IMG/VR virus record: IMGVR_UViG_3300028374_000002
Coordinates: 32,001-96,000 of that record
Origin: a virus
Lineage: Duplodnaviria > Caudoviricetes
Strand: one strand, 5' to 3'
Length of the DNA stretch: 64,000 bases
The position numbers were made by a program, and so were the translations under genes. Each line of letters begins with the position of its first letter. Position 1 is the first letter of the stretch. Below are positions 2 through 57,187 of the stretch, piece by piece. The notes below the pieces were generated by a model that was given only the letters and a program-made list of their open reading frames with translations, did no database searches and was not told the DNA's origin.

Positions 2-541
2 CAAAGATTTAGTCAATATTCGGAAAAGTTAAATGAGATGAATGATACACCAGAGAGTTATATAGCCACAGCACTTAATAAGCTTAAAAGAAAAGTTGAT
101 AAAATGTTTGCATATTTGGATGGTAAAACACAAGGTGGTAAGATATTAACACCAGAGGGCTTAGAAAAAGTAGATCCGAAAGATATAACGTTTAAAGATT
201 TAGGACTTCATTTAGATAGTTCTGAGGTCTCTAAATATTCTAAGTTATATGACTCATTTACTATAAAGTTTAGAGATGCTAACAACGCATATACAATGAT
301 TGTAATGATTGGTGTTGAGGAGGCTATGCCTGAAGAGTCAGAAGAACAATTTGGACAAGATAATATAGAAAATGCTTATATAAAATTTAAGAAGTATGGT
401 AGTGAGGGTATGGACTTAATTGGACAAATGGATAAAAATGTGAAAATAAAAGATATTGATGAAGCATTCTTGATAGATTTGAAGATTGAACTAGATGATG
501 AGTATGATGAAAATGAGGATGAATTCGAAATACAAACATAA
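2..541 (+). CDS. Acidic hypothetical protein, 5'-truncated by the window edge
   Basis: The frame stays open upstream of the called ATG at 38 (QRFSQYSEKLNE-M...), so the real start is probably just before base 1. The N-terminus resembles the recurring MKxIKxF/YxxFxE motif. Confidence 0.75.
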   Translation, partial: QRFSQYSEKLNEMNDTPESYIATALNKLKRKVDKMFAYLDGKTQGGKILTPEGLEKVDPKDITFKDLGLHLDSSEVSKYSKLYDSFTIKFRDANNAYTMIVMIGVEEAMPEESEEQFGQDNIENAYIKFKKYGSEGMDLIGQMDKNVKIKDIDEAFLIDLKIELDDEYDENEDEFEIQT

Positions 542-549
542 ATTAAAAT

Positions 550-1053
550 ATGGTTATACACGTAGTTACAAACATGCAAATAATAAGTAGTATATCAAAA
601 TCTAAATACTTTGCTAAGAATTTGGGTTTTGTCTCAACAGTAGAAAAAAATGGAAAAAGAATCCCTAATGATAAAGATAATTTCTCACATCGTTATATGA
701 ACTTATATAGATCAAGTATATATGCACAGGGTAACGTAGGGAATATAAAGTTTTATACTGACCACTACATAAATGACCAAGTTATGGCAGTTTATTATGG
801 TGAAGAATTAGAAGAATTTATATTTAATTTTGATAGTGAATTTGTTACAAAGAAAGGCATTGACTCTTTTCTAGGGAAGATACTCAAAGAACTAGAGGAA
901 AGATATGAAGAAAGGATTAAAACAAAAGAAAGCGAAAAAGTAGTAGAAAAGCCTAGGGGTAACTCTGATAAAATATTTAGTAATCCTGGTGATGTTACCT
1001 ATGAAGATTTAAAAGAGTACCTTCGAAAGAAAAAAGAAGAAAAAGAAATGTAA
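550..1053 (+). CDS. Hypothetical protein (167 aa)
   Basis: Long ORF in series with the upstream gene and ending at a terminator; no motif recognised. Confidence 0.75.
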   Translation: MVIHVVTNMQIISSISKSKYFAKNLGFVSTVEKNGKRIPNDKDNFSHRYMNLYRSSIYAQGNVGNIKFYTDHYINDQVMAVYYGEELEEFIFNFDSEFVTKKGIDSFLGKILKELEERYEERIKTKESEKVVEKPRGNSDKIFSNPGDVTYEDLKEYLRKKKEEKEM

Positions 1054-1056
1054 ATT

Positions 1057-1092: not shown

Positions 1093-1109
1093 GTAATTAC
1101 ACATATTTA

Positions 1110-2978
1110 TTATTTGACTTCTTCAAAATCCACGTCCTCTGTATCATCAGATTCATTCTTTGTGGTTTCTTCCTCATTATTATATAATTTTGAACTTATA
1201 TCATTCCAAGATGTATTGAGTTTTTCAACCTTTTCATCTATTGCCTCTGCTTCTTCTGACTTATACGCATCTTTGAGTTCGTTTAAGCTATTGCTAAGGA
1301 CTTCTTTATCATCGCTTGATAACTTATCATCAAACTCTTTTAACTGCTTCTCTGTTTGGAAAATAAGCGTATCTGCTTTATTCATCTTATCGACTTTCTC
1401 TTTCTCTAGGTTATCAGCCTCTGCATTTGCCTCTGCTTCTTCTTTCATTTTGCTTATCTCTTCCTTAGAGAGTTGGGAACCACCTTCAATTCTTATTTTA
1501 TTTTCCTTACCAGATGCCTTATCTTTAGCAGATACTGATAGAACACCATTTGCATCAATATCTAAAGATACTGTAATCTGTGGAACTCCTCTAGGGGCTG
1601 GCAAAATGCTATCTAGATGAAATCTGCCCAAAGATTTATTATCTTTAGCCATTGGTCTTTCACCTTGTAAGACATGTATCTCAACACTTGACTGGTTATC
1701 TGATGCAGTTGAGAAGGTTTCTTCTTTTGATGTTGGTATAGTTGTATTGCCTTCAATTAGTTTTGATAATATCCCACCCATAGTTTCGATACCTAATGAT
1801 AGTGGTATAACATCTAATAAAAGAACATCATCTATACTTCCTGTTAGTACTGCTCCTTGTATAGAAGCACCAAGTGCTACAACTTCATCGGGATTTACCG
1901 ACTTATTAGCCTTCTTATTTAAAAACTTCTCTAGTGCTTCTTGAATAGCTGGTATTCTTGTTGAGCCACCAACTAATATAATCTCATCAATATCTGATGG
2001 ATTTAGTTTAGCATTTTTAAGTGCAGACTTTGCACAATCTATTGTTCTTTTAACTAAATTAGATGTTAGTTGTTCAAATTTAGCCTTTGTCAAGGTTTTA
2101 ACAAAATGAAGTGGTCCAGAATTACTTACCGTTATATATGGAAGATTTATTTCTGTTGTACTTGAAGAAGATAACTCTACCTTAGCCCTTTCCCCCGCAT
2201 CTTTTAGCCTCTGTAAAGCCATTGGATCTTTAGACAAATCAATAGAGTTTTCTTTCTTAAAGTCATCTACCATCCAATCAATAATAGCATCATCAAAGTC
2301 ATCTCCACCTAAGTGTGTATCACCATCAGTTGACTTAACCTCAAATACACCATCTCCAATTTCTAATACCGATACATCATGTGTCCCTCCACCGCAATCA
2401 AACACTAGAATCTTAGAATCTGCATCTTTCTTATCAAAACCATATGCTAATGCGGCTGCCGTTGGTTCATTAATAATTCTCTCAACCTTTAAACCCGCAA
2501 TTTCACCTGCCTCAATTGTTGCAGTTCTTTCAACATCTCCAAAATATGCAGGTACTGTGATTACTGCTCTAGTCACTTCTTGACCTAAAAAGTCTTCTGC
2601 TGTTTTTTTCATTTTCTGTAAAATCATTGCAGAAAGTTCTTGTGGAGTAAAAGTTCTATCACCTATCTTCACACTAGGTACATCATTACCACTGCTTACA
2701 ACATTGTATGGTACTCTTGATACCTCCTCTTTTAATTTTGAAAAGCTTTTACCCATAAATCTCTTTATAGAATAAATAGTATTCTCTGGGTTAGTTACTG
2801 CTTGTCTCTTAGCAGAGTCTCCCACTTTTCTTTCACCATCACTTGTAAAGGCTAGTATAGATGGTGTTGTTCTTTTTCCTTCTGAATTAGCTATGATTTG
2901 TGGTTCACCACCTTCAACAACTGAAACACAGCTATTTGTAGTACCAAGGTCAATTCCGATAATTACGTCTTTTTTCAT
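1110..2978 (-). CDS. dnaK: Hsp70 chaperone DnaK
   Basis: [45 protein letters not shown] and a DVDFEEVK tail. Start moved to MKKDVIIG (2978). Confidence 0.98.
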
Positions 2979-3046: not shown

Positions 3047-3292
3047 ATTTAACTGACTATGTGTTATATAATCAAAAGTTATAAAGTTTAGTAGTTTATA
3101 ATTTTACCTTCTTGTGTCTATGTCTAAATCTTTTTCATTATCAAAATTATCTTCAAATAGTTTAATATATTATGTGAAAAACATGCAACATCATGATATA
3201 TAAATAATAATTAATTAATATTCACGTTAAATAAGCAATATCAATCACTATTCGTGGTAAGTAACTATTATTCATACGACATATATAATAAA

Positions 3293-3301
3293 TAATATAT
3301 A
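3293..3301 (+). promoter_or_regulatory. Putative phage (late) promoter TAATATATA
   Basis: Motif ends 4 nt before the ATG at 3306; the same motif and spacing recur across the window. Confidence 0.6.
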
Positions 3302-3305
3302 CTGT

Positions 3306-4565
3306 ATGAATAATTATTTAAAACGATTTAAAACTTTTGAACTAGTTACCTCTCGTGATGAGTTAAATAGCACAAGAGATAGAAGGTCTAGCCTAGTAGA
3401 ACCAGCACTCATGGAACTAGAAGACTATCTAGAATTACTAGGTGCTAACAAGCAACATCCCTCATCTGCGTATCAATTTAACCTATCCGATTCGGAAAAA
3501 TTTGAAAATAAAGACCTTTATGACTATTTGAACACAAAAAAACATGGCTCTGTGTCAGTAAAATACTATATTAGAAATGATAAAGAGCATAACAATTCCT
3601 ATGTTAAAACAAATGATGAAGGTCATGTAGTACGTGATACAAAGGGTATGGCAGTTTATTTAAATAATGATGAATTAAAGGAAAAAGACCTATTAAATAA
3701 ATATGATAAGAATATAGTAGCTATTCATAATGATATTATAGTTGGGTCTGCTCAAGATGAATGGGGTTGTGTCTTAGTGTATGTGGTTGATGAATTTAAA
3801 GGTATAGGGATAGGTCAAGAATTAGTTGAATATTATAGAAAGATATACCCTGATAAGGTATCTGGAGGCACAACAGAGGATGGTTACAAGAACTTAATTA
3901 AATACTATAAGTATCAAGTTAAATTATACCTAAGAAATGGCATATATTCAGACATGGTCAAAAATGGTGATATTTCTAAAGAAAAAGTCAAGAAGATAAC
4001 AGATAGTGTAAAGGGAACGAAATACACCAAATACAAAGATACTATTTATAGTAAATATTTAAATATTGATAGTTATAATAAAGCTTTTGTTTATTCTGAT
4101 GGTGATATTGTATTAATAAATGATAAAATACTAGATTTCTATAATGATTATGATGGAACTGGTAAAGACTTTTATGAAAAATTCGTGTTTGGACACTCAC
4201 ACATTGTAGACAATGAGTATAATCAAAGATTATACTTTATAGAGGGAAAAAGCAATAAAGATATAGAAAGTGTTATAAAGCATTCACTATGCTTTATAAA
4301 TTCATATTATAAAAAAGATTTTGCTACATATTTTGTAACAGAGAATACATCTGACATAGTTAGAAAGTTTTTCAAGAGTATTGATAAAAATACAGATTTT
4401 AAAGTAGAATGGTATGAGAAAGACAGATGTAAAATATACTTTGACAAATGTGACTCTCTGAAAAAAGATTTATTAACAGGAACTAAATGGTTCTATTCTT
4501 TAGATGATAAATATGATGAAATAAAAAACCAATTAATAGAGAACGTTTACTCAACATTTGAATAA
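3306..4565 (+). CDS. GNAT acetyltransferase-domain protein with CTS-like N-terminus
   Basis: VYVVDEFKGIGIGQELVEYY fits GNAT motif A (acetyl-CoA binding); N-terminus MNNYLKRFKTFE. Confidence 0.65.
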   Translation: MNNYLKRFKTFELVTSRDELNSTRDRRSSLVEPALMELEDYLELLGANKQHPSSAYQFNLSDSEKFENKDLYDYLNTKKHGSVSVKYYIRNDKEHNNSYVKTNDEGHVVRDTKGMAVYLNNDELKEKDLLNKYDKNIVAIHNDIIVGSAQDEWGCVLVYVVDEFKGIGIGQELVEYYRKIYPDKVSGGTTEDGYKNLIKYYKYQVKLYLRNGIYSDMVKNGDISKEKVKKITDSVKGTKYTKYKDTIYSKYLNIDSYNKAFVYSDGDIVLINDKILDFYNDYDGTGKDFYEKFVFGHSHIVDNEYNQRLYFIEGKSNKDIESVIKHSLCFINSYYKKDFATYFVTENTSDIVRKFFKSIDKNTDFKVEWYEKDRCKIYFDKCDSLKKDLLTGTKWFYSLDDKYDEIKNQLIENVYSTFE

Positions 4566-6608: not shown

Positions 6609-6947
6609 TTAATTCTTTAAATAATTAACAATCTTAATTGGATTAATTGACTTATTCTTCGTTACAAATGTTGATAAATCACCCACTTTACGCTTAATAT
6701 CATCAATTATATCACTAGAATTAGCACCATCAGGATACTTATTACTAAACCAATCTTTATCCGATATCATTGTATTAACTCATGTTTGTAAAGTCTCAAT
6801 ACCATACTCATCTAATCCTAGTGACGTTAAATACTTATTCTTTGGCATTGGACTACCATGGTGGTCTCCTTTGAATTGTGAAACAAGATCATAATTTTCA
6901 TTTATGAATAATGTAAAGTTTTTTATCTTGCTCTTTGGTGTTTCCAT
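6609..6947 (-). pseudogene. 112-codon gene interrupted by one in-frame TGA (6780-6782)
   Basis: METPKSKIKNFTLFINE...IETLQT*VNTMISDKDWF...YLKN; the frame is continuous on both sides of the TGA. TTTATATATA lies 20 nt upstream. Confidence 0.55.
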
Positions 6948-14578: not shown

Positions 14579-15799
14579 TTACCATATGTTTTTAAATCCT
14601 CTTTTCATTAACCATTCCCTTGCTAATTCTAACCTCTTAGTCTCATTTATTATAGAACTTACAACTAAGTTATAAGTCTCTCTAGATTCTAAGTATCTCT
14701 TATACTTATCATAAGACTCAAAATTATCTTCGATATCTTCTAAAGACATATCTTTAGCTAAAGAATAGTTTTTCATAGATAATATAAATGGTGCATCTTT
14801 ATTACCTTTGAGGTGATTTACTGCATATTCTTTCAATGATAAGCCCTTATACTTATTATATTCATTTTCTAAATATTCAACTCTGTCTTTTGTATAGGAT
14901 TTTACAACGGAAACCAATCTATCTATTCTATCGATAGATTCTATATCTTCCTCTGGTATCTCTGAGATAAGATCATCTATATCATCATTTAAAATATGTT
15001 TTATAAGGATATTTTCTCTGTATAAATCATCTGTTAAAAGTCCGTGTAAATTTCTATACCATTCAGTTTTAACTTTCAATACTATACCTTCCATTTCAAC
15101 AACCCATCCTTCTTTATTCTCAACAGTCTTGGCTAATTCAATAATATCATCTAATGTATAACATTCAAATTCAGCTTTCTTTATATTAACCCCACTTATA
15201 TCGATATACTCACCAGTCAAGTTGTTACGTAATTTTAGTAGAATAAGTTCTTCTTTCATATATCTTAAAACTATTCTATTAGAAGGTGCTACATATTCAA
15301 ATATAGGAACAATGTCATTGTCTAAACAATCATTTACAAAGTTTTTTATTTCCTCATTATCATTATAAACTCTATTAATCCCATCGGCTTGTGAATTATC
15401 AAATCCTATCTTAGATTTGCCAACTATCTTGCCATTTGGTAGCTTTATAAAGGTGGCTAATGAACCATCTTCTTTATTATTGACATTTATAACATTATAA
15501 TCTTTAACAACATCATATAGAGTCTCTGGAACTTGGTTCAAGTTGAAAAACTTCTTTAGTAGCAAGTATCTTTTAAATAAACTACCATCTTCATTAAATA
15601 CAAATGTTAATCCTCTTAACTCATAGGCACTTATATCTGAATCTTCTCCAAAAGGTTTGGCGAAGTCTGACCATTGTGCTAGTCTATAGTTAAATACAGA
15701 AATATTAAAACCTTCAACATTTACTTTAGTTTCATAAAATGCGGAATCTACTAGATTACACAAATCAACACATTGTTTATAAGTTATTAATTCTGACAT
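14579..15799 (-). CDS. T4 Rnl1-like RNA ligase
   Basis: ELRGLTF, KKFFNLNQ, motif I KEDGSL, IFEY, EGWVV, LKVKTEWY. Start moved to MSELITY (15799). Confidence 0.9.
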   Translation of the reverse strand: MSELITYKQCVDLCNLVDSAFYETKVNVEGFNISVFNYRLAQWSDFAKPFGEDSDISAYELRGLTFVFNEDGSLFKRYLLLKKFFNLNQVPETLYDVVKDYNVINVNNKEDGSLATFIKLPNGKIVGKSKIGFDNSQADGINRVYNDNEEIKNFVNDCLDNDIVPIFEYVAPSNRIVLRYMKEELILLKLRNNLTGEYIDISGVNIKKAEFECYTLDDIIELAKTVENKEGWVVEMEGIVLKVKTEWYRNLHGLLTDDLYRENILIKHILNDDIDDLISEIPEEDIESIDRIDRLVSVVKSYTKDRVEYLENEYNKYKGLSLKEYAVNHLKGNKDAPFILSMKNYSLAKDMSLEDIEDNFESYDKYKRYLESRETYNLVVSSIINETKRLELAREWLMKRGFKNIW

Positions 15800-22517: not shown

Positions 22518-23153
22518 TTATATAATTGACACTTTAGCCTTTCTTTCGTTTAAAAGTATTTGTAATTCATCTTTTCTAAATGTTTTTAGATAAATATCGT
22601 TCATAGCATCTGTGTTTTGTAAATCCCATTCACTACCATTTGATGTTTGGTATATATATCTCTCATCACCATCAATAATCTCGATACTTCTAGATGTTAA
22701 CTTTTCATAAAACTTTTTAACATCATCATTTACTTTATACATCTTAGCATCTTCCCATCTATCCAAAGAAGAATTCCATGTTTGGAATAACATATAGTCT
22801 GGGTTTTCTAATTCATTAGCATTCATGTCATATATGAACATAAATTTACAGGCTTTATTTAAAAATGTTTGAAAATCATCACTATTCTTAACATCAGACT
22901 TCTTAAGTCCTATGCTAGACAAAGAATTTATAAATTCTATATTATCCGATAGAAATTCAATATCTAAATTATCAACATACACATCTGTTGGTAGGTCTAG
23001 TGTAGTAAATATGTTAACTTCTTCTGCATTTATAGAACTTATTAATGAATCATGCCATATATTTAGTGATTCCATTAAATCATCAAAATGTTCATATTCA
23101 AAATTGAATTGAATTGATTCTTTATAGCTATTGTAGTCCTTGATATATCTCAT
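22518..23153 (-). CDS. Hypothetical protein, CTS-like N-terminus
   Basis: MRYIKDYNSYKES; TAATATATA upstream. Confidence 0.8.
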   Translation of the reverse strand: MRYIKDYNSYKESIQFNFEYEHFDDLMESLNIWHDSLISSINAEEVNIFTTLDLPTDVYVDNLDIEFLSDNIEFINSLSSIGLKKSDVKNSDDFQTFLNKACKFMFIYDMNANELENPDYMLFQTWNSSLDRWEDAKMYKVNDDVKKFYEKLTSRSIEIIDGDERYIYQTSNGSEWDLQNTDAMNDIYLKTFRKDELQILLNERKAKVSII

Positions 23154-23239: not shown

Positions 23240-24607
23240 ATGAAATGGATTAGAAATTACGAGATATTCAAAGAGAGTAAATCATATTCAAATAAAAATT
23301 TAGTTAAAGAAATATGTACTTCAATGGTACTTCTTAACAATACGTTTTTAGATGATTTACTAGACAAAGGTATAAAGGCTAGATATTCGTCAAATTCTGA
23401 TGTATTCCTAACTGATTTAAAAAATCTATTAATTACTAAGAATAGATTAGAGTTAGGTAAGTACATTGATGGTAAATGTCAAAAAGATGATGAAATATCC
23501 AAAGTAATCGAACATTTTGAAGGTGTTAAGTTTGATATAGAGAAAGACTGGAAGTTGTTAGTAGATTCAAGAACTACTGCTAGAAGTATTATTGATAAAC
23601 TTTTAGCAGAGGAAAAGCTAGAAGAGAGTAGAATAAAGAAAGTATATTGGTTAGGACCAAACAAGACAGATGAATATGGTGAAGATATCGTTGTTGAGTT
23701 AAATGATGGTAGACAATTCTCTTTCTTCCTTGATAAAAGCTTATCAAAAACAAAAACAGCATCATTTAATAAGCTATCAGAAGAATTAATAGGTAATGAT
23801 TTAGATAATCTATTCAAGGGTGATTATCTTGAAAAATGGTCAATGCTAACACAAGAATGGATTACACTAATTTATGAGAATGTAAATAAAAATATACAAT
23901 CTCATATTGAAAAATTCATAGACACAAAAAATATTGATAAAATAGGATATTTTGATTTCTTTTCGATAAGACACAATGATTCTAGATATAGACACCTTGG
24001 GGAATATATGAAAGAGTTTGATAGAAACATACTTAATCTTTCTGATTTATTAATAGAAGTTTGGAAGGATAAGAAAATGTTTTTTAAAGATGAAGAATTA
24101 GTAACTAAAAAGTGGAATGAGACAAAAGTTGTTTTGCTCAACTCTAAAATACTAGAAAAGTTATTTACTGATTCTTTCAAAGAAAACTATCTAGATGACA
24201 TCGATAAACTAGATAATAATTTCAAACTAGCAACTGGTGAACTGAAAATGAAGTTATTTAAAATAATTGTTGAAAAATTAGGTTGCGAAGAAAGAAATAT
24301 TTATTACTTAGATAAGGGTAAATCATTCGAGATGATACCTTCTAGACAATTCTTTAGAAGATATTTTGATGATTTAGATATAATGTTTGACTATCACGTA
24401 GATTTTACAACTGATTCTGAAGATGATAATAATTTTGGGATTGTTATAAGAGTCGAAATGGATACTGATAAATTATTAGATTTAGACATTGATATAAAGT
24501 TTGCTGGTGGTGAGATGTCTGGTAAATTGAATGCTAAGTATAGTTTTGATATTTCTAAAAATTTTAACTATTTAGTATCTAAAAAGCAAACGTTTAAAGA
24601 ACAATAA
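23240..24607 (+). CDS. Hypothetical protein (455 aa), CTS-like N-terminus
   Basis: MKWIRNYEIFKES; TAATATATA about 21 nt upstream. Confidence 0.85.
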   Translation: MKWIRNYEIFKESKSYSNKNLVKEICTSMVLLNNTFLDDLLDKGIKARYSSNSDVFLTDLKNLLITKNRLELGKYIDGKCQKDDEISKVIEHFEGVKFDIEKDWKLLVDSRTTARSIIDKLLAEEKLEESRIKKVYWLGPNKTDEYGEDIVVELNDGRQFSFFLDKSLSKTKTASFNKLSEELIGNDLDNLFKGDYLEKWSMLTQEWITLIYENVNKNIQSHIEKFIDTKNIDKIGYFDFFSIRHNDSRYRHLGEYMKEFDRNILNLSDLLIEVWKDKKMFFKDEELVTKKWNETKVVLLNSKILEKLFTDSFKENYLDDIDKLDNNFKLATGELKMKLFKIIVEKLGCEERNIYYLDKGKSFEMIPSRQFFRRYFDDLDIMFDYHVDFTTDSEDDNNFGIVIRVEMDTDKLLDLDIDIKFAGGEMSGKLNAKYSFDISKNFNYLVSKKQTFKEQ

Positions 24608-24611
24608 CTAA

Positions 24612-24995
24612 TTACTGCTCTTGTGAAAACATTTCTATGAATTCTTCATCAAAGTCACCATTATCATCAAAAACTGGGACTTCGTCATAACCTATTTCAC
24701 ACATAAATGGAAAACTTGACTTAGAGTTGTATGTGGTTTTCATAATGACATCCTCTCCATTTACAGTAATATGGTAATTTGATACATAAAGACCATCACT
24801 ACCTAAATCTATTTCAAAAGGCTCACCACTTTCTTCTATGATTATACTTATACCTTCTGGTAATTGATGGTCTAATATTTTAAGAGCTAGGACACCCATA
24901 CATTTAAGTAATTTACTTTCATTAAAGAAATCTCTAGGTATTACTCTTTTGTAGTCACTATTATACGATTCGAATGTTTTTATGTTTTTTTCCAT
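24612..24995 (-). CDS. Acidic hypothetical protein, CTS-like N-terminus
   Basis: MEKNIKTFESYNS; TAATATATA 4 nt upstream. Confidence 0.8.
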   Translation of the reverse strand: MEKNIKTFESYNSDYKRVIPRDFFNESKLLKCMGVLALKILDHQLPEGISIIIEESGEPFEIDLGSDGLYVSNYHITVNGEDVIMKTTYNSKSSFPFMCEIGYDEVPVFDDNGDFDEEFIEMFSQEQ

Positions 24996-25005
24996 ATGAT
25001 ATATA

Positions 25006-29388: not shown

Positions 29389-29410
29389 GGATATATTAAA
29401 TAGTTTAATT

Positions 29411-29419
29411 TAATATATA
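29411..29419 (+). promoter_or_regulatory. Putative late promoter at the head of the LRR array
   Basis: TAATATATA 4 nt before the first ATG; no other intergenic space exists inside the array. Confidence 0.6.
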
Positions 29420-29423
29420 CTCT

Positions 29424-30155
29424 ATGAAACACATAAAATCTTACAAGATATTCGAGAGTGCTAGTCCTAACTTCCCAACTACAAGAGAGGAAGTTATAGA
29501 AGTTTGTGAAAAATATAAAATAGAAAAATATAGTATTAATGATGATTTAAGTATTGATGTTGATGGTGATGTTTATTTAGATGGTCAAAGCTTAGAATAC
29601 TTACCACTTAAATTTAATTATATAGAGGGTAGCTTTGATTGTCATTTTAATGAATTAAAATCATTAGAGGGTTGTCCAGAAAAAGTGGGTGGAACTTTTA
29701 ACTGTTCTTTTAATCAATTAAAAACATTAGAAGGTAGCCCACGAACAATAAATGGTCGTTTTAGTTGTTCTAATAATGAATTAAAAACATTAGAATTTAG
29801 CCCACAAACAGTAGGTGGTACTTTTCGTTGTATACATAATGAATTAAAGACATTAAAAGGTAGCCCACAAACAGTAGGTGGTAATTTTTCTTGTTCTCAT
29901 AATGAATTAAAAGATTTAGAACATTTCCCAGAAGTAAATAGTAGAATAGACATATTTGAAAACACAGTAAATTTATTAGTGTATACCTTTATTAAAAAAG
30001 CTGATAGCTTTATGATAGAAGACTTTGTAGATTATGAAATAGTCAGAAACAGAGATACTGTTATGCTAGATAGGCTTCAAACTTTTATAAGAGATAACGA
30101 TTTAGAAATGCCTGATTTGGAAGAAATTAAAAAAGAATATAAAATAATAGAATAG
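29424..30155 (+). CDS. LRR-like array paralogue 1 (4 internal repeats)
   Basis: MKHIKSYKIFES cap; LxxLEGxPxxVxGxFxCxxNx repeats; conserved ...YKIIE cap. Confidence 0.95.
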   Translation: MKHIKSYKIFESASPNFPTTREEVIEVCEKYKIEKYSINDDLSIDVDGDVYLDGQSLEYLPLKFNYIEGSFDCHFNELKSLEGCPEKVGGTFNCSFNQLKTLEGSPRTINGRFSCSNNELKTLEFSPQTVGGTFRCIHNELKTLKGSPQTVGGNFSCSHNELKDLEHFPEVNSRIDIFENTVNLLVYTFIKKADSFMIEDFVDYEIVRNRDTVMLDRLQTFIRDNDLEMPDLEEIKKEYKIIE

Positions 30156-30156
30156 A

Positions 30157-30888
30157 ATGAAACATATAAAACCTTATAAAATATTCGAGAATAAAAGTCC
30201 TAACTTCCCAACTACAAGAGAGGAAGTTATACAAGTGTGTGAAAAGTATGAAATAGAAAATTATACCATAAACGATGATTTAAGTATTGGTGTTGATGGT
30301 AGTGTATATTTAGAGAAGAAAAAATTAGAATACTTACCACTTAAATTTAATTATGTGAGTGGTACATTTATATGTTCTAGTAATAAATTAAAGTCATTAG
30401 AAGGTTGTCCACAAACAGTAAGTGGTAGTTTTTATTGCTTTAATAATAAACTAGAATCATTAGAAGGTAGTCCACAAACAGTAAATGGGGATTTTTATTG
30501 CTTTAATAATAATTTAAAAACATTAAAAGGGTGTCCACAAACAGTAAATGGTAATTTCAGTTGTGACAATAATGAATTAAAATCATTAAAAGGTTGCCCA
30601 CAAACAGTAAATGGTAATTTTGGCTGTAAAGATAATGAATTAAAAGACTTAGAACATTTTCCAGAAGTAAATGGTATTATAGACATAAGGGGAAATCCAG
30701 TAAATCTCTTAACATATACCTTTATCAAAAATGCTGATAGCTTTATGATAGAAGATTTTAACGACTATGAAATAGTTAGAAATAGAGATACTGTTATGTT
30801 AGATAGATTAAAAACCTTCATAGAAGGATTTGATTTAGAAATGCCTAATTTGGAAGAAATTAAAAAGCACTATAAAATAATAGAATAA
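30157..30888 (+). CDS. LRR-like array paralogue 2 (4 repeats)
   Basis: Same architecture; first 208 nt identical to paralogue 7. Confidence 0.95.
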   Translation: MKHIKPYKIFENKSPNFPTTREEVIQVCEKYEIENYTINDDLSIGVDGSVYLEKKKLEYLPLKFNYVSGTFICSSNKLKSLEGCPQTVSGSFYCFNNKLESLEGSPQTVNGDFYCFNNNLKTLKGCPQTVNGNFSCDNNELKSLKGCPQTVNGNFGCKDNELKDLEHFPEVNGIIDIRGNPVNLLTYTFIKNADSFMIEDFNDYEIVRNRDTVMLDRLKTFIEGFDLEMPNLEEIKKHYKIIE

Positions 30889-30890
30889 AC

Positions 30891-31622
30891 ATGAAACACA
30901 TAAAACCTTACAAAATATTTGAGAGTGCTGAGCCTAACTTCCCAACTACAAGAGAAGAAGTTATAAAGGTATGTAGAAGATATAAAATATATAGCTACAC
31001 TATTAATGATGATTTAAGTATTGATGTTGATGGTGATGTTGAATTATATAGTAAAAATTTAGAATACTTACCGCTTAAATTTAATTATGTAAATGGTTAT
31101 TTTAATTGTGATTATAACAACTTAAAAACATTAGAAGGGTGTCCACAAACGGTAGATGGGGTTTTTGATTGCTCTCAAAATGAATTAAAATCATTAAAAG
31201 GTTGCCCACAAACAATAGGAATGGATTTTTATTGTAGCTTTAATGAATTAGAAACACTAGAAGGTAGTCCATCAGTAGTGAATGCTAATTTTCTATGTGA
31301 TGATAATGAATTAACGACATTAAAAGGTTGTCCACAAACAGTAAGTGGTGGCTTTAACTGTAAATTTAATAAATTAACAGATTTGGAACACTTCCCAGAA
31401 GTAAATGGTATTATAGCCATAAGGGGAAATCCAGTAGATTTATTAGTACATACTTTTATCGAAACTGCTGATAGCTTTATGATCGAAGATTTTGTAGATT
31501 ATGAGATTGTTAGAAATGGTGATACTGTTATGTTAGATAGACTTCAGACCTTCATTAGGGATAACGATTTAGAAATGCCTAACTTGGAAGACATCAAAGA
31601 ACACTATAAAATAATAGAATAG
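30891..31622 (+). CDS. LRR-like array paralogue 3 (4 repeats)
   Basis: Same architecture. Confidence 0.95.
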   Translation: MKHIKPYKIFESAEPNFPTTREEVIKVCRRYKIYSYTINDDLSIDVDGDVELYSKNLEYLPLKFNYVNGYFNCDYNNLKTLEGCPQTVDGVFDCSQNELKSLKGCPQTIGMDFYCSFNELETLEGSPSVVNANFLCDDNELTTLKGCPQTVSGGFNCKFNKLTDLEHFPEVNGIIAIRGNPVDLLVHTFIETADSFMIEDFVDYEIVRNGDTVMLDRLQTFIRDNDLEMPNLEDIKEHYKIIE

Positions 31623-31623
31623 A

Positions 31624-32229
31624 ATGAAACATATAAAACCCTATAAAATATTCGAGAGTGTTAGTCATAACTTCCCAACTACAAGAGAGGAAGTTGTAAA
31701 AGTGTGTGAATATTACAAAATAGAAAATTACACTATTAATGATGATTTAAGTATTGATGTTGATGGATCTATTGGCTTATATAATAAAAATTTAGAACAC
31801 TTGCCACTTAAATTTAACTATGTAGATGGTGGTTTTCATTGTAATCGTAATAAATTAAAATCATTAGAAGGTTGTCCAAAAACAGTAAATGGTGATTTTT
31901 ATTGCTTTACTAATGAATTAGAGACATTAGAAGGTTGTCCGCAAACAGTAGGTGGTGATTTTTATTGCTTTACTAATGAATTAAAAGACTTAGAACATTT
32001 CCCAGAAGTAAATGGTAGAATAGATATAGAGGAAAATCCAGTAGATTTATTAGTACATACTTTCATTGATAATGCTGATAGCTTTATGATAGAAGATTTT
32101 AACGACTATGAAATAGTTAGAAACAGAGATACTGTTATGTTAGATAGGCTTCAAACATTTATTAGAGATAACGATTTAGAGATGCCTAATTTGGATAACA
32201 TTAAAGAACACTATAAAATAATAGAATAA
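31624..32229 (+). CDS. LRR-like array paralogue 4 (2 repeats)
   Basis: Same architecture, 201 aa. Confidence 0.95.
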   Translation: MKHIKPYKIFESVSHNFPTTREEVVKVCEYYKIENYTINDDLSIDVDGSIGLYNKNLEHLPLKFNYVDGGFHCNRNKLKSLEGCPKTVNGDFYCFTNELETLEGCPQTVGGDFYCFTNELKDLEHFPEVNGRIDIEENPVDLLVHTFIDNADSFMIEDFNDYEIVRNRDTVMLDRLQTFIRDNDLEMPNLDNIKEHYKIIE

Positions 32230-32230
32230 A

Positions 32231-32899
32231 ATGAAACATATAAAACCTTATAAAATATTCGAGAGCAATAGTCCTAAATTTCCAACTACAAGAGAGGAAG
32301 TTATACAAGTGTGTAAAAAGTATAAAATAATAGATTATACTATTAATGATGATTTAAGTATTGATGTTGATGGTGATGTTGAATTATATAGACAAAGATT
32401 AGAATATCTACCACTTAAATTTAATTATGTAAGTGGTAATTTTAATTGTTTTGTTAATAAATTAAAAACATTAGAAGGTAGTCCACAAACAGTATTTGGA
32501 TATTTTAACTGTGGTGGCAATGAATTAAAATCGTTAGAAGGTAGTCCACAAACAGTAGGTGGGCGTTTTAATTGTTATTTTAATGAGTTAGTATCATTAG
32601 AAGGTAGTCCACAAACAGTAGATGGTGATTTTGATTGTTCCTATAATGAATTAAAAGACTTAGAACATTTCCCAGAAGTAAATGGAACTATAGATATAGA
32701 AGATAATATAGTATATTGTTTAGTATATACCTTTATTAATAAAGCGGATAGCTTTATGATAGAAGATTTTATAGACTATGAAATAGTTAGAAACAGAGAT
32801 ACTGTTATGTTAGATAGGCTTCAAACTTTTATAAGAGATAACGATTTAGAAATGCCTAATCTGGAAGAAATTAAAAAAGACTATAAAATAATAGAATAA
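32231..32899 (+). CDS. LRR-like array paralogue 5 (3 repeats)
   Basis: Same architecture, 222 aa. Confidence 0.95.
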   Translation: MKHIKPYKIFESNSPKFPTTREEVIQVCKKYKIIDYTINDDLSIDVDGDVELYRQRLEYLPLKFNYVSGNFNCFVNKLKTLEGSPQTVFGYFNCGGNELKSLEGSPQTVGGRFNCYFNELVSLEGSPQTVDGDFDCSYNELKDLEHFPEVNGTIDIEDNIVYCLVYTFINKADSFMIEDFIDYEIVRNRDTVMLDRLQTFIRDNDLEMPNLEEIKKDYKIIE

Positions 32900-32901
32900 A
32901 C

Positions 32902-33951
32902 ATGAAACATATAAAACCTTATAAAATATTCGAGAATAAAAGTCCTAACTTCCCAACTACAAGGGATGAAGTTATAGAAGTGTGTAAAAGATATGGTATA
33001 GAAGACTACACTATTAATGATAATTTAAGCATTGATGTTGATGGTGATGTTGATTTAGGGAGGGTATACTTAGAATATTTACCACTTAAATTTAATTATG
33101 TGAGTGGTTATTTTGATTGTAATTATAATGAATTAAAGACATTAGAAGGTTGTCCAACAACAGTAGGGGGTAGCTTTTATTGCTATGGTAATCAATTAGA
33201 GACATTAGAAGGTTGTCCACAAACAATAGGTGGTGATTTTTATTGTAACATCAATATTTTAGAAACATTAGAAGGTTGTCCACAAACAGTAGAGGGTTAT
33301 TTTGATTGTAGCCATAATGGATTAACGTCATTAGAAGGTAGTCCACAAACAGTAACTGGGGGTTTTGGTTGTTCTAGCAATGAATTAACAACATTAAAAG
33401 GTTGTCCACAAACAGCGGGTAAGTATTTTGATTGCTCTTCTAATAAAAAATTAAAATCATTGAAGGGTTGTCCACAAAAAGTAGAGGGGGATTTTAATTG
33501 TAGTGGAAATAACTTAAAAACATTAGAAGGTGGCCCACAGACAGTGGGTGGTAATTTTCAGTGTTATTATAATAGTTTGGAAACATTAAAAGGTTGTCTA
33601 CAAACAGTAGATGGGGATTTTAATTGTCATTTTAATAAATTAGAAACACTAGAGGGTGGTCCACAAACAGTAAATGGGAATTTTCGTTGTTTTAATAATA
33701 AATTAAAAGACTTAGAACACTTCCCAGAAGTAAATGGTAGAATAGATATAAAGAAAAACACAGTAAATTTATTAGTATATACCTTTATTGAAAATGCTGA
33801 TAGTTTTATCGTAGAAGATTTTAACGACTATGAAATAGTTAGAAACAGAGATACTGTTATGTTAGATAGGCTTCAAACATTTATTAGAGATAACGATTTA
33901 GAGATGCCTAATTTGGATAACATTAAAGAACACTATAAAATAATAGAATAA
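32902..33951 (+). CDS. LRR-like array paralogue 6 (9 repeats)
   Basis: Same architecture, 349 aa. Confidence 0.95.
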   Translation: MKHIKPYKIFENKSPNFPTTRDEVIEVCKRYGIEDYTINDNLSIDVDGDVDLGRVYLEYLPLKFNYVSGYFDCNYNELKTLEGCPTTVGGSFYCYGNQLETLEGCPQTIGGDFYCNINILETLEGCPQTVEGYFDCSHNGLTSLEGSPQTVTGGFGCSSNELTTLKGCPQTAGKYFDCSSNKKLKSLKGCPQKVEGDFNCSGNNLKTLEGGPQTVGGNFQCYYNSLETLKGCLQTVDGDFNCHFNKLETLEGGPQTVNGNFRCFNNKLKDLEHFPEVNGRIDIKKNTVNLLVYTFIENADSFIVEDFNDYEIVRNRDTVMLDRLQTFIRDNDLEMPNLDNIKEHYKIIE

Positions 33952-33952
33952 A

Positions 33953-34684
33953 ATGAAACATATAAAACCTTATAAAATATTCGAGAATAAAAGTCCTAAC
34001 TTCCCAACTACAAGAGAGGAAGTTATACAAGTGTGTGAAAAGTATGAAATAGAAAATTATACCATAAACGATGATTTAAGTATTGGTGTTGATGGTAGTG
34101 TATATTTAGAGAAGAAAAAATTAGAATACTTACCACTTAAATTTAATTATGTGAGTGGTAATTTTTATTGTCATCATAATAAATTAAAATCGTTAGAAGG
34201 TAGTCCACAAACAGTAGAGGGGGATTTTAAATGTGCTTATAATAAATTAAAGACATTAGAAGATAGCCCACAAACAGTAGGTGGGCGTTTTATTTGTTAT
34301 TTTAATGAGTTAGTATCATTAGAAGGTAGTCCACAAACAGTAGATGGTGATTTTGATTGTTCCTATAATGAATTAGAAACACTAGAGGGTGGTTCACAAA
34401 CAGTAAATGGTAATTTTGATTGTTATAGTAATGAATTAAAGGACTTAGAACATTTCCCAGAAGTAAATGGAACTATAGATATGGGGGCAAATCTAGTAAA
34501 TCTATTAGTATATACTTTTATTGAAAATGCTGATATCTTTATGATAGAAGATTTTATAGATTATGAAATAGTTAGAAATAGAGATACTGTTATGTTTGAC
34601 AGATTAGAAACTTTTATAAGAGATAATGATTTAAAAATGCCTGATTTGGAAGAAATTAAAAAACACTATAAAATAATAGAATAA
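33953..34684 (+). CDS. LRR-like array paralogue 7 (4 repeats, mosaic)
   Basis: Segments identical or near-identical to paralogues 2, 10 and 5. Confidence 0.95.
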   Translation: MKHIKPYKIFENKSPNFPTTREEVIQVCEKYEIENYTINDDLSIGVDGSVYLEKKKLEYLPLKFNYVSGNFYCHHNKLKSLEGSPQTVEGDFKCAYNKLKTLEDSPQTVGGRFICYFNELVSLEGSPQTVDGDFDCSYNELETLEGGSQTVNGNFDCYSNELKDLEHFPEVNGTIDMGANLVNLLVYTFIENADIFMIEDFIDYEIVRNRDTVMFDRLETFIRDNDLKMPDLEEIKKHYKIIE

Positions 34685-34686
34685 AC

Positions 34687-35484
34687 ATGAAACATATAAA
34701 ACCTTATAAAATATTCGAGAGCAATGGGCCTAACTTTCCAACTACAAAAGAGGAGGTTATAGAAGTGTGTAAAAAGTATAAAATAATAGATTATACTATT
34801 AATGATGATTTAAGTATTGATGTTGATAGTTATGTTAGATTAGATAGTAAAAATTTAGAATACTTACCACTTAGATTTAATTATGTGAGTGGTGGATTTT
34901 CTTGTTGTAGAAATATATTAGTATCGTTAGAAGGTAGTCCACAAACAGTAGGTGGTGATTTTGACTGTCAAGGTAATGAATTAAAAACATTAGAAGGTAG
35001 TCCACAAACAGTGGGTACTAACTTTGAATGTTCTTATAATAACAAACTAGAAACATTAGAAGGTTGTCCACAAACAGTTGGTGGTTATTTTGGTTGTTCA
35101 CTTAATGAATTAAAATCATTAAAAGGTTGTCCACAAACAGTAGGTGGTGATTTTGATTGTTTTGGAAATGAATTAAAATCATTAGAAGGTTGTCCATCGG
35201 TAGTTAATGGTAATTTTAATTGTTCTTTTAATAAATTAAAAGATTTAGAACACATATCAGAAGTAAGTGGTAATATAGACATAAGACACAATGTAGTATA
35301 TTTACTGATGTATACCTTCATTGATAAAGCTGATAGCTTTATGATAGAAGATTTTATAGACTATGAAATAGTTAGAAATAGAGATACTGTTATGTTAGAT
35401 AGGCTTCAAACATTTATTAGAGATAACGATTTAGAGATGCCTAATTTGGATAACATTAAAGAACACTATAAAATAATAGAATAA
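34687..35484 (+). CDS. LRR-like array paralogue 8 (5 repeats)
   Basis: Same architecture, 265 aa. Confidence 0.95.
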   Translation: MKHIKPYKIFESNGPNFPTTKEEVIEVCKKYKIIDYTINDDLSIDVDSYVRLDSKNLEYLPLRFNYVSGGFSCCRNILVSLEGSPQTVGGDFDCQGNELKTLEGSPQTVGTNFECSYNNKLETLEGCPQTVGGYFGCSLNELKSLKGCPQTVGGDFDCFGNELKSLEGCPSVVNGNFNCSFNKLKDLEHISEVSGNIDIRHNVVYLLMYTFIDKADSFMIEDFIDYEIVRNRDTVMLDRLQTFIRDNDLEMPNLDNIKEHYKIIE

Positions 35485-35486
35485 AC

Positions 35487-36098
35487 ATGAAACATATAAA
35501 ACCTTATAAGATATTCGAGAGTGTTGGTCCTAACTTCCCAACTACAAGAAAGGAAGTTATACAAGTGTGTAATGGGTATAGAATAAAAAACTATACTATT
35601 AATGATGATTTAAGTATCGATGTTGATGGTGATGTTCATTTATATAGTAAAAATTTAGAATACTTACCACTTAGATTTAGTTATGTGAGTGGTGCATTTC
35701 TATGTTATGATAATGAATTAAAAACATTAGAAGGTTGTCCACAAACAGTAGGTAGGTCTTTTTCCTGTTCTAATAATTTTTTAGTATCGTTGAAAGGATG
35801 TCCACAAACAGTACGTGGTAGTTTTAATTGCTCTTATAATAAAATAACAGACTTAGAACACTTTCCAGAAGATAGTCAGGTCATATACATAGAAAATAAT
35901 CCAATATACAATCTAATAAATACGTTTATTTTTAAACCAAAAACTGATAGCTTTATGATAGAAGACTTTATAGATTATGAAATAGTTAGAAACAGAGATA
36001 CTGTTATGTTAGATAGACTTCAAACATTCATTAGAGATAACGATTTAGAAATGCCTGACTTAGAAGAAATTAAAAAAAAATATAAAATAATAGAATAG
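35487..36098 (+). CDS. LRR-like array paralogue 9 (2 repeats)
   Basis: Same architecture, 203 aa. Confidence 0.95.
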   Translation: MKHIKPYKIFESVGPNFPTTRKEVIQVCNGYRIKNYTINDDLSIDVDGDVHLYSKNLEYLPLRFSYVSGAFLCYDNELKTLEGCPQTVGRSFSCSNNFLVSLKGCPQTVRGSFNCSYNKITDLEHFPEDSQVIYIENNPIYNLINTFIFKPKTDSFMIEDFIDYEIVRNRDTVMLDRLQTFIRDNDLEMPDLEEIKKKYKIIE

Positions 36099-36100
36099 AC

Positions 36101-36832
36101 ATGAAACATATAAAACCTTATAAGATATTCGAAAGCAATGGTCCTAAATTTCCAACTACAAGAGAGGAAGTTATACAAGTGTGTAAAAAGTATAAAATAA
36201 TAGATTATACTATTAATGATGATTTGAGCATTGATGTTGATGGTGGTGTATATTTAAACAGAAGATACTTAGAATATTTACCACTTAAATTTAATTATGT
36301 GAGTGGTAATTTTTATTGTCATCATAATAAATTAAAATCGTTAGAAGGTAGTCCACAAACAGTAGAGGGGGATTTTAAATGTTATTTTAATAAATTAAAG
36401 ACATTAGAAGGATGTCCACAAACGATTAGTGGTAGTTTTAATTGCTCTGATAATTATTTGAAACTATTAAAAGGTTGTCCACAAACAGTAGATGGTAGCT
36501 TTGATTGTTCATATAATAAATTAATATCATTAGAGGATGGTCCACAAACAGTAGGTGGTTATTTTGAATGCGATAATAATAAATTAACTGATATGGAACA
36601 CTTCCCAGAAGTAAATGGTCCTATAATCATAGATGGGAATCCAGTAAACTCTTTAATATTTACCTTTATCAAAAACGCAGATAGTTTTCTCATAGAAGAT
36701 TTCGTAGATTATGAAATAGTTAGAAATGGCGATACTGTTATGTTAGATAGGCTTCGAACTTTAATTAATGATAATGATTTAAAAATGCCTGACTTAGAAG
36801 GTATTAAAAAGCACTATAAAATAATAGAATAA
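36101..36832 (+). CDS. LRR-like array paralogue 10 (4 repeats)
   Basis: Same architecture, 243 aa. Confidence 0.95.
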   Translation: MKHIKPYKIFESNGPKFPTTREEVIQVCKKYKIIDYTINDDLSIDVDGGVYLNRRYLEYLPLKFNYVSGNFYCHHNKLKSLEGSPQTVEGDFKCYFNKLKTLEGCPQTISGSFNCSDNYLKLLKGCPQTVDGSFDCSYNKLISLEDGPQTVGGYFECDNNKLTDMEHFPEVNGPIIIDGNPVNSLIFTFIKNADSFLIEDFVDYEIVRNGDTVMLDRLRTLINDNDLKMPDLEGIKKHYKIIE

Positions 36833-44212: not shown

Positions 44213-44485
44213 TTATTTTTTAATTATTCTTATTATTAGATTACCATTACCCTTTATTATCCTATGGTAGGTCTCTTTAGGTATAAATGTATTTTCTGTT
44301 ATGCTTTTAGGTAATTCGTTATCCAATTGTATTTTCCAATTACACTCATTTATACATGTAATATATCTATCCTCTTCATCACGATGCCAAACCATTTCAT
44401 TAGATGGAATAGCTTGTGAAAACTCTCTTATGAAAGTGTTTTTACTTATCTTATTTTCTGTATAAGGATTCTCCATATTCACCAA
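44213..44485 (-). CDS. Small cupin-like protein
   Basis: EMVWHRDEEDR ... FIPKETYHRIIKG resembles the two His-containing cupin motifs. Confidence 0.55.
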   Translation of the reverse strand: MVNMENPYTENKISKNTFIREFSQAIPSNEMVWHRDEEDRYITCINECNWKIQLDNELPKSITENTFIPKETYHRIIKGNGNLIIRIIKK

Positions 44486-45072
44486 TAGCTATTTGATTGA
44501 CCACTAATACCTAAAGAATCTGCATATCTTGGCAACCTACATGACCAATATCCAGCAGTTGTCTTATCTTTTTTATTCTTACAGTCATGCCTAGCCGCAA
44601 AGTTTTTACTAGCTTCTTTATCATCTAATTTAACACTAAGTCCACCTTTTTTATCACCAAAGTTTATCTTTATTATATTCCCAGTATCTGGATTTTTAAC
44701 ATATACTTTATATTTCTTTGGACCACTTGACCGAGTTGGTTTGTTTATTTCTACTTTTTTACCACCTTTATATTCGTGTTTCTTCTCTTCTATTATGTAC
44801 TCATCTGATTCAGAAGGTATATCTAATGGTACTTTTATACCTTTATAAATCCCATATCTGCCTATATCAGTATTTTCATAGAGTTCCATATCTAAATCAA
44901 CCAATTCTATAACACCATCTTCGTATAGATTTCTAACTTCTTCTAGAAGTATGTAAAATGACTCAGAACCAGTTCTAAATATATTATTTGTAAAACTTAT
45001 ACTATTATCAATGTGATATTTTATATTTTCTGATACTAATCTATAATCACTAAATTTTTTAATTATCCCCAT
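44479..45072 (-). CDS. Phage protein with basic C-terminal FAARHxC...YWSC domain, CTS-like N-terminus
   Basis: MGIIKKFSDYRLVSE; KKYKVYVKNP...INFG...FAARHDC...AGYWSCR. Confidence 0.75.
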   Translation of the reverse strand: MGIIKKFSDYRLVSENIKYHIDNSISFTNNIFRTGSESFYILLEEVRNLYEDGVIELVDLDMELYENTDIGRYGIYKGIKVPLDIPSESDEYIIEEKKHEYKGGKKVEINKPTRSSGPKKYKVYVKNPDTGNIIKINFGDKKGGLSVKLDDKEASKNFAARHDCKNKKDKTTAGYWSCRLPRYADSLGISGQSNSYW

Positions 45073-56450: not shown

Positions 56451-56511
56451 ATAAAACTTTTAGTTATAACTATATATAAAAATGTAAGTATTCTTATTAA
56501 ATATATACCAT

Positions 56512-56922
56512 ATGAAAACTATTATAAACAAAGAGATATTAAAAAGTTTAGTCAGATTTAATAAAATAAAGGACAGAATATCTAGAAACGAGAAGAATGA
56601 GTTATATAGTACAATATATAGTAATGAAAAGAACTATATGATGTTATCTAAAAATATTACGTTTTATAGGTTAAAAGATATGCTTGATAAGAAAGTTAAG
56701 ATAGTTTGTAACTTAAAAGACAGAAATGGTAAGATAGGTGAAAGAGTTTTGAATATAATATCTAATATAGATACTAGTTATGATTTATTATTATCAAGAA
56801 ATACGCCTTGTAAATTAGAAGACCGTTTTCTTTATAATATAAAATATAATGAGAAGAAGAAATATTATTCCTTGGAAGAGCATAGTGAGTATTTTGAAAA
56901 AATAAAAATAAATAATGATTAA
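56512..56922 (+). CDS. Basic hypothetical protein (136 aa)
   Basis: AAATATATA 4 nt upstream. Confidence 0.7.
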   Translation: MKTIINKEILKSLVRFNKIKDRISRNEKNELYSTIYSNEKNYMMLSKNITFYRLKDMLDKKVKIVCNLKDRNGKIGERVLNIISNIDTSYDLLLSRNTPCKLEDRFLYNIKYNEKKKYYSLEEHSEYFEKIKINND

Positions 56923-57187
56923 AAAGTTTAAACAATTCAACGAAGAAATATCTGGTACAGAGTTAGTTGGACCAATTGGACCAGCTTATGGAGAGACTGG
57001 ATTACAGAATAAAACTGTTAATTCACATGATACTAATGTAATATTTTGTGATATAAATAATAACTTTTACACTATTGATGAGTATAATAATTTATATGCA
57101 GATTATTTAAAAGAGGGTGGGAGTCCATTATATGGATTTAACTTAGAAAATATACATACTATAATTTCATTTTTAGAAAGTGAATAA
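56915..57187 (+). CDS. Small protein, CTS-like N-terminus
   Basis: MIKKFKQFNEEIS. Confidence 0.75.
   Translation: MIKKFKQFNEEISGTELVGPIGPAYGETGLQNKTVNSHDTNVIFCDINNNFYTIDEYNNLYADYLKEGGSPLYGFNLENIHTIISFLESE

Follow-up and report, generated by a model that had tools for sequence, protein, structure and literature searches.

The locus considered here is a 64,000-nucleotide window (bases 32001-96000) of the 201,264-bp linear virus record IMGVR_UViG_3300028374_000002, which derives from an uncultured huge lake phage, has a GC content of 28.8% and is rated 28% complete by CheckV. Within this window 20 open reading frames (ORFs) start with a short sequence, hereafter called the tag, of consensus M-K-[YH]-[IL]-[KR]-x-[FY]-x(1-3)-E-[SNA] or a variant thereof, which resembles the capsid-targeting sequence of phage T4. 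The nearest records are LR745206 (634,780 bp) and LR756502 (642 kb), both uncultured huge phages, and the head protease of the fragment is 79% identical to that of LR745206. Given the sizes of these nearest records we take the window to be part of a T4-type huge phage of roughly 600-700 kb. LR756501 and LR756503 (735 kb), LR756504 (636 kb), and LR756500 (462 kb) are more distant relatives, and the Prevotella Lak phages are more distant still. We called 239 ORFs in the whole fragment and clustered the products after removal of their first 20 residues, which gave 194 families. The genomes compared were all of LR745206 and 400 kb each of LR756501, LR756504, LR756500, and Lak-A1, the last being read with TAG as a sense codon, which raised its coding density from 0.66 to 0.92.

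Tagged genes in the window

The 20 ORFs, 10 of which form one array, are listed below with their tag scores on a matrix trained on LR745206.

29424..36832, plus strand: array of 10 tandem genes encoding small leucine-rich repeat (LRR) proteins of 201-349 residues; starts MKHIK[PS]YKIFE[SN]; 21.5-21.9 bits
42468..42926, minus strand: truncated LRR-family member, MKHLKTFNES; 24.9 bits; 41% identity to array members; weak Pfam LRR matches
3306..4565, plus strand: 419-residue protein, MNNYLKRFKTFE, tag offset by one residue; 19.3 bits; phrog_29287 (function unknown), E 5e-20
22518..23153, minus strand: 211-residue protein, MRYIKDYNSYKES; 14.4 bits; LR745206 orthologue (66% identity) also tagged, MRYIKSYKTFKES
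23240..24607, plus strand: 455-residue protein, MKWIRNYEIFKES; 14.8 bits; LR745206 orthologue (61% identity) also tagged, MKWLRNFELFKEA
24612..24995, minus strand: 127-residue protein, MEKNIKTFESY, tag offset by one residue; 15.4 bits
38219..39460, plus strand: 413-residue protein, MFIKKYIEFIKEA, full-core variant Y-x-E-F-I-x-E-A; the core matches the T4 core and the scaffold repeat described below
56915..57187, plus strand: 90-residue protein, MIKKFKQFNEE, within a tail/structural gene block; LR745206 orthologue (64% identity) begins MIKKFYQFINE
6780..6947, minus strand: 55-residue ORF, core pattern only, KIKNFTLFINEN from residue 7; probably a tag with a short pre-extension
2..541, plus strand: 182-residue protein, Met just before the window start (genome 31993), degenerate tag MKIQRFSQYSEKLNE; LR745206 orthologue (48% identity) clearly tagged, MKIRKYIEFITED
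44479..45072, minus strand: 197-residue protein, MGIIKKFSDYRLVSEN, marginal candidate; <5 bits; hydrophobic-4, K5, F7, and Y10 present; phrog_7595 (function unknown), E 1.7e-11

All 20 ORFs named in the original prediction exist at their places, although only 18 carry a convincing tag. The tag is 10-13 residues long and starts at M1 in nearly all cases; its fullest form is M-K-Y-I-K-x-Y-x-x-F-[IL]-x-E-[AS], and three of the ORFs (38219-39460(+), 56915-57187(+), and 6780-6947(-)) have the variant [FY]xx[FY][ILN]x(0-2)E. Across the whole fragment 47 ORFs of 24 families are tagged, one of these families being an LRR family of 26 members in three arrays, and past residue 20 the 24 families have no mutual BLAST similarity. 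The claim that the tag sits on otherwise unrelated proteins thus stands, except that the 42468-42926 protein is a truncated paralogue of the array family and so is not an unrelated protein.

The 10 LRR genes of the window array lie behind a single promoter-like TTAATATATA, and their products are composed of a variable number of 21-residue repeats of the LxxLxLxxN solenoid type. AlphaFold2 modeling of an array protein gave residues 1-9 a predicted local distance difference test (pLDDT) score below 50, and the LRR solenoid begins at about residue 21 with pLDDT of about 97; hence the tag is predicted to be unstructured and to lie outside the fold. The top fold matches of this model were all LRR domains (IpaH, SspH1, YopM, VLR, and InlJ) with weak E-values of 0.01 or more, and a Pfam search of the array proteins gave LRR matches that were all below threshold. 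The repeats, the modeled solenoid, and the fold matches agree in placing the array proteins among LRR proteins, as had been proposed. Two other assignments fared less well. The 3306-4565(+) protein may have a GNAT-like domain, a weak claim that depends on a Pfam match below cut-off (Acetyltransf_7, E 0.008), and Pfam and PHROGs gave no ParB-like domain in any tagged protein of the window. The 38219-39460(+) protein matched no Pfam family and had no informative Atlas match. Overall, Pfam, PHROGs, and Atlas searches of the tagged proteins returned almost nothing beyond the sub-threshold GNAT and LRR matches and one HNH endonuclease. The tagged proteins are acidic, as originally noted, with a net charge per residue of -0.075 vs -0.014 (p = 6e-5).

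The tag is an N-terminal signal at the protein level

With the LR745206-trained matrix and a threshold of at least 10 bits, matches were found at 34 of the 239 N-termini vs 6 of the 60,152 internal positions of the fragment, an enrichment of more than 1000-fold that bears out the N-terminal placement originally proposed; three of the six internal matches fall within the first 16 residues. When each family was given one representative, aromatic residues peaked at positions 7 and 10 (29 vs 17.7 expected at each), and the loose seed hydrophobic-[KRQ]-x-[FY] was present at 28 of 187 N-termini vs 6.4 expected from its internal density. When a matrix of the flanking positions was trained on the rest of the fragment, it separated N-terminal from internal seeds within the window, and the converse training did likewise (p = 5.6e-5 and 3.3e-5). 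A de novo expectation-maximization motif search of all N-termini mainly picked up the trivial Lys at position 2, and the cross-validated and cross-genome matrices were used in its place.

LR745206 gave the larger sample, as 112 of its 915 proteins (12%) are tagged. There, one register, M-x-x-[ILV]-[KRQ]-x-[FY], recurs in 84 families lacking detectable similarity, with 80 observed vs 18.9 expected from the marginal frequencies. Position 3 played no part in selection and is Tyr in 58% and His in 32% of these tags, and information content has fallen to background by residue 12-13. At every tag position the LR745206 codons vary both synonymously and conservatively: Ser is encoded by both TCN and AGY, and Leu or Ile by TTA, CTA, TTG, CTT, ATT, and ATA. 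Since synonymous codons vary, selection is at the level of protein. The tag is also found on genes located inside operons. It is a protein-level signal of 10-13 residues, neither a nucleotide element nor the start of a shared fold.

Match of the tag to the T4 capsid-targeting sequence

In the T4 record (NC_000866) the internal proteins IPII and IPIII start MKTYQEFIAEA and IPI starts MKTFKEF. M1, K2, a hydrophobic residue at position 4, the aromatic residue at position 7 (F7), and a later Glu are in register between the tag and the T4 sequences, and the resemblance first noticed thus holds against the T4 record. The full T4 core, [FY]-x-x-[FY]-[ILV]-x-E, is present in MFIKKYIEFIKEA of the window and in about 21 N-termini of LR745206, and these full-core tags (Y-x-E-F-I-x-E-A) match T4 Y-Q-E-F-I-A-E-A. 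The MKYLK-type and full-core tags are versions of one signal, because LR756500 joins the two halves as MKYIKEYEEFILEA.

T4 gp21 cleaves at the consensus (L/I)-x-E. Residues 59-66 of T4 gp23 read FGSFLTE|A, at the position that the literature gives for its maturation cut, and in the T4 record gp22 starts MLKEQLIAEA and has many I-A-E and L-A-E sites. A Glu lies at positions 8-16 in 111 of the 112 LR745206 tags vs 47% of untagged proteins. At the putative cleavage site of these tags the third residue counted back from the cut (P3) is F, I, L, or Y in 75% of cases, Leu or Ile accounting for only 38%. The residue that follows the Glu (P1') is Ser in 43% vs a background of 7%, and Ser, Asn, or Ala in 63%.

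Head genes and the repeat of the protease-scaffold protein

Three genes for T4-type head proteins lie in the fragment, all outside the window.

Genome 139519-141222, minus strand: gp23-type major capsid protein (Pfam Gp23, E 5e-28)
Genome 141303-143441 (L007:1303-3441), minus strand: 712-residue protease-scaffold protein, directly upstream of the capsid gene and between it and the portal gene
Genome 149919-151613, minus strand: gp20-type portal (Portal_T4, E 3e-53)

The N-terminal ~200 residues of the 712-residue protein are predicted to be a gp21-type prohead protease. The protein matches phrog_207 (head maturation protease, E 2e-27), tblastn connects it with annotated gp21-type proteases in 680 phage records, and BLASTP aligns it with T4 gp21 at 30% identity over 115 residues. 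In the alignment GEFDHP is opposite GELNHP (T4 His85) and VSSRAAG is opposite VSSRGLG (T4 Ser140), so that both the His and the Ser, which we take to be the T4 catalytic residues, are kept. The Pfam search of the fragment for Peptidase_S77 did not recover this protease, which was detected via PHROGs; the match of the protein to Peptidase_S77 (E 0.0025, 17.8 bits) is below the 27-bit cut-off. A sequence search of solved structures with the protease-scaffold protein gave nothing meaningful.

The remainder of the protein is scaffold-like, with a coiled-coil stretch, eleven tandem 14-residue repeats, and a very acidic region. The repeat consensus is N-L-D-K-N-I-N-Y-S-E-Y-I-A-E, the core of which (Y-S-E-Y-I-A-E) matches both the T4 core Y-Q-E-F-I-A-E and the fullest tags. 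Every repeat ends in I-A-E, which is to say the cleavage consensus of T4 gp21, and the same ending recurs in T4 gp22. The pattern [FY]xx[FY][ILV]xE has 24 internal occurrences in the fragment, 11 of them within this one protein, and the stricter repeat unit was found nowhere else in the six reading frames of the fragment. The full-core form of the tag appears to copy the scaffold repeat. The link to the scaffold runs only through this variant, as the canonical-tag matrix found no match on the scaffold protein. A complex prediction that combined two copies of scaffold residues 245-450 with residues 1-45 of the 38219-39460 protein scored 0.00, with a partner pLDDT of 32, and speaks neither for nor against binding.

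Repeats and tags were then compared across genomes; one protein may enter both tag counts of a genome, as can happen with merged forms.

LR745206 (whole genome): 11 regular repeats, core Y-S-E-Y-[IL]-A-E; 112 tagged proteins, both forms
LR756501: regular Y-S-E-Y-I-A-E repeats; 31 full-core and 4 MKYLK-type tags
LR756504: regular Y-S-E-Y-I-A-E repeats; 26 MKYLK-type and 21 full-core tags
LR756500: degenerate repeats; 20 and 20 tags, merged form
Lak-A1: no repeats, an acidic low-complexity region instead; 1 and 1 tags, equal to background

Repeats and tags hence occur together in five genomes (the source fragment, LR745206, LR756501, LR756504, and LR756500), the flavor of the tag varying by genome. 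Lak-A1 encodes a gp21-type protease that lacks the repeats and has tags only at background. As this protease is present and the GC content (26%) is even lower than that of the fragment, Lak-A1 serves as a control against an explanation by AT bias.

Several other features related to the head genes were observed. After its repeats the 712-residue protein has a stretch rich in His, Asp, and Glu with reiterated MHDEE-like units. In LR745206 an 83-residue ORF (460435-460686(-)) that adjoins a DnaJ-like gene has three scaffold-type 14-residue units and a possible internal start, MNYEDYIAES; by analogy it may be a small prohead-core protein like T4 gp67 and gp68, and the source fragment has no counterpart. 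In LR756501 the prohead protease domain has another paralogue of shorter length (11440-11805(-), a 181-residue frame with E 5e-21 to residues 31-153), which recalls the diverged protease paralogue reported for SPN3US.

Portability of the tag and turnover of the tagged proteins

The window contains one gene that serves as a control for portability of the tag.

14579..15799, minus strand: untagged homologue of the tagged LR745206 protein r470485, 49% identity

r470485 (420 residues) has an extra N-terminal stretch, MKLFKYIEFINEN, that is absent from the homologues in the fragment, LR756504, and LR756501. The tag is therefore modular and portable between proteins. r470485 is probably a T4 Rnl1-type RNA ligase, an assignment taken from the Pfam summary rather than from a per-protein result.

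Only 18 of the 112 tagged LR745206 proteins have any homologue in the five other genomes sampled, and thus the set of tagged proteins turns over quickly. The few tagged LR745206 proteins with Pfam domains include a SMODS-associated NUDIX protein, another NUDIX protein, a 2H phosphoesterase with an Acb1-like match, the T4-type RNA ligase, a GH108 protein, and an M15 peptidase. Most of these recognizable domains could serve the phage as soon as it reaches a host, a suggestive but circumstantial point.

An upstream motif common to tagged and structural genes

Among genes having at least 30 nucleotides of upstream intergenic space, the motif WWTATATA was found within 70 nucleotides upstream of 9/9 structural genes, 19/21 tagged genes, and 5/12 replication and metabolism genes (tagged vs replication genes, Fisher p = 0.005), the structural and replication classes being small sets assigned by eye. 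Random 70-nucleotide windows contain the motif in 6% of cases. We compared WWTATATA with the T4 late promoter, which we take to be TATAAATA. The narrower TAATATATA, which the original prediction had placed upstream of most tagged ORFs, does precede 7 of the 11 tagged transcription-unit heads of the window in similar form, but it also lies upstream of 72 of the 239 genes of the fragment (~30%). Hence it was ruled out as a tag-specific signal; the broader WWTATATA is shared with structural genes.

The [AT][AT]TATATA motif has two preferred spacings to the ATG, 4-6 nucleotides and about 18-24 nucleotides (examples are at window positions 3290-3305, 29408-29423, and 24996-25011). From the short spacing, many genes are expected to have mRNAs with no leader or almost none.

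Other genes of the fragment

Homologues of DnaK (Hsp70; window 1110-2978(-)) and DnaJ (21254-22315(+)) were recognized, as judged from their N-terminal sequences only, and three tagged genes directly adjoin the DnaJ gene. The HNH endonuclease (Pfam E 3e-11), encoded outside the window on the minus strand at genome 162541-163137, starts with a weakly tag-like sequence, MKVLENFKELKE. An isochorismatase guess for the protein at genome 163564-164178 had no Pfam support and was dropped. A family of 18 proteins of 300-600 residues, probably homing endonucleases, is dispersed over the fragment (for example at genome 3104-4846, 21441-23273, and 153251-155035), often downstream of the promoter-like motif.

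Discussion

Taken together, the T4 match, the head genes, the scaffold repeat, the co-occurrence of repeat and tag, the shared promoter motif, the N-terminal enrichment, and the portability are best accounted for if the tag is a capsid-targeting signal, and on balance it is probably a portable, protease-removed propeptide of the T4 kind. We infer packaging of the tagged proteins, cleavage after the Glu, and injection. In the mechanism we propose, the tag would imitate one 14-residue repeat unit (..K-N-I-N-Y-S-E-Y-I-A-E|N..) of the phage's own gp21-type protease-scaffold fusion, and because of this imitation tagged proteins made alongside the head proteins would co-assemble with the scaffold core inside the prohead. 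The protease would then cut after the Glu at the hydrophobic-x-E site to release the cargo within the head, and the cargo would probably reach the next host together with the DNA. The most far-reaching form of this proposal, that the tag mimics the scaffold repeat unit and marks a packaged and injected proteome of ~100 families (~12% of genes) that can be read from sequence, is put forward tentatively, as a possibility short of an expectation.

A number of observations sit poorly with a capsid-targeting propeptide. In many tags (F-N-E-S, T-F-E-S) P3 is not the Leu or Ile that the T4 cleavage rule calls for, the spacing from the aromatic residue to the Glu is variable, and the canonical prefix M-K-Y-L-K needs a one-residue gap to align with the scaffold repeat. 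The promoter-like motif is also found upstream of about half of the other genes, and its comparison between gene classes depends on the small sets assigned by eye. One tagged LR745206 protein has an RNase_T/PolB-exonuclease-like domain, the marked acidity of the tagged proteins is odd for proteins embedded in packed DNA, and with more than 100 tagged families the number of packaged species would greatly exceed that of every phage studied.

The number of families and their acidity would be less troublesome if the tag were an address or recognition label for a target other than the capsid, such as the phage Hsp70 system (DnaK and DnaJ), timed proteolysis for which it would be the degron, or another intracellular site, the likeness to the scaffold then reflecting only a shared type of helix. 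Generic Hsp70-binding peptides resemble the basic-hydrophobic-basic-x-aromatic core of the tag, and the phage encodes both DnaK and DnaJ. However, such a label leaves unexplained the T4 register, the almost invariable Glu with Ser, Asn, or Ala after it, the agreement of the full core with the scaffold repeat, the co-occurrence of tag and repeat across genomes, and the promoter motif held in common with structural genes, and we regard it as unlikely.

A different possibility accepts loading into the prohead but not delivery: the tagged proteins could be auxiliary core, inner-body, or filler proteins of a very large capsid, many of them degraded or expelled during maturation. The head-module and scaffold-mimicry evidence applies to these equally well, the acidic composition of the tagged proteins resembles that of the acidic scaffold tail, and SPN3US and phiKZ have ~50 head proteins, many of unknown role (PMC5694885). 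The hypervariability of the cargo between close relatives (the 18 of 112 proteins shared) and the presence among it of enzymes and diversified LRR binders fit host-directed functions better, and we judge a purely structural role to be quite improbable. Finally, a by-product of AT-rich codon usage or of a nucleotide-level constraint on translation initiation, to which the 29% GC genome, the commonness of Lys at position 2 in all genes, and the promoter-like motif only 4-6 nucleotides before the ATG of many genes, with many mRNAs that look leaderless, might seem to point, is disfavored and can very nearly be set aside given the synonymous and conservative codon variation at every tag position, the strong correlation of the tag positions (80 vs 18.9), the lack of the tag in Lak-A1 at 26% GC, and the tagging of operon-internal genes.

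The capsid-targeting propeptide proposed here has much in common with that of T4. In both phages the signal occupies the extreme N-terminus, has 10-20 residues and an M-K start, tends to end with hydrophobic-x-Glu followed by a small residue, and is borne by otherwise unrelated, fast-evolving proteins. The huge phage has homologues of gp20, gp21, and gp23, and in each case the core resembles sites of the phage's own scaffold (gp22 in T4). The differences begin with scale: T4 has about five such proteins, whereas the huge phage has 24 families in the 201-kb fragment and LR745206 has ~112 proteins (12%). The huge-phage consensus differs in having [YH]3, [KR]5, a variable spacing to the Glu, and Ser after the Glu. 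The huge phage has its protease and scaffold fused in a single polypeptide with a regular tandem repeat of 14 residues, and tandem arrays of diversified LRR proteins are among its tagged families. A packaging role for the huge-phage tag is, unlike that in T4, a prediction from sequence. The tag thus appears to be the same type of signal as that of T4, extended to roughly one protein in ten and with a matching regular repeat in the fused protease-scaffold protein.

Other giant phages provide a second comparison. In phiKZ, 201phi2-1, and SPN3US, a gp21-related protease removes N-terminal propeptides from head and ejection proteins by cutting at [SAG]-x-E (PMC5694885, PMC10052503). These too are giant phages with many internal head proteins and a protease of the gp21 family that cuts after Glu, as is predicted for the huge-phage tag, and their propeptides have been proposed to target proteins into the prohead, as we propose here. 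However, their propeptides are mostly longer than 100 residues and have no shared short consensus, only ~8-20 proteins are processed, and a scaffold repeat that matches the propeptides has not been described. Our literature search found no paper that links capsid-targeting sequences with metagenomic huge phages.

Should the tag prove to direct capsid loading, sequence alone would suffice to list the internal virion cargo of uncultured 600-700-kb phages, a task beyond the present reach of direct proteomics. To our knowledge the mechanism of the T4 targeting sequence has never been structurally pinned down, and the huge phages would suggest one in which the signal mimics a scaffold repeat or a cleavage unit. 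Part of the unknown-function gene complement of huge phages would also be explained, and candidate counter-defense proteins for the first minutes of infection would be pointed out together with LRR binders. The injected set would include an Acb1-like phosphoesterase, NUDIX enzymes, an RNA ligase, cell-wall hydrolases, and arrays of hypervariable LRR binders; we know of no studied phage with an injected proteome of such a scale. Huge phages would, if this is true, deliver a ready-made and rapidly evolving anti-host arsenal along with their DNA.

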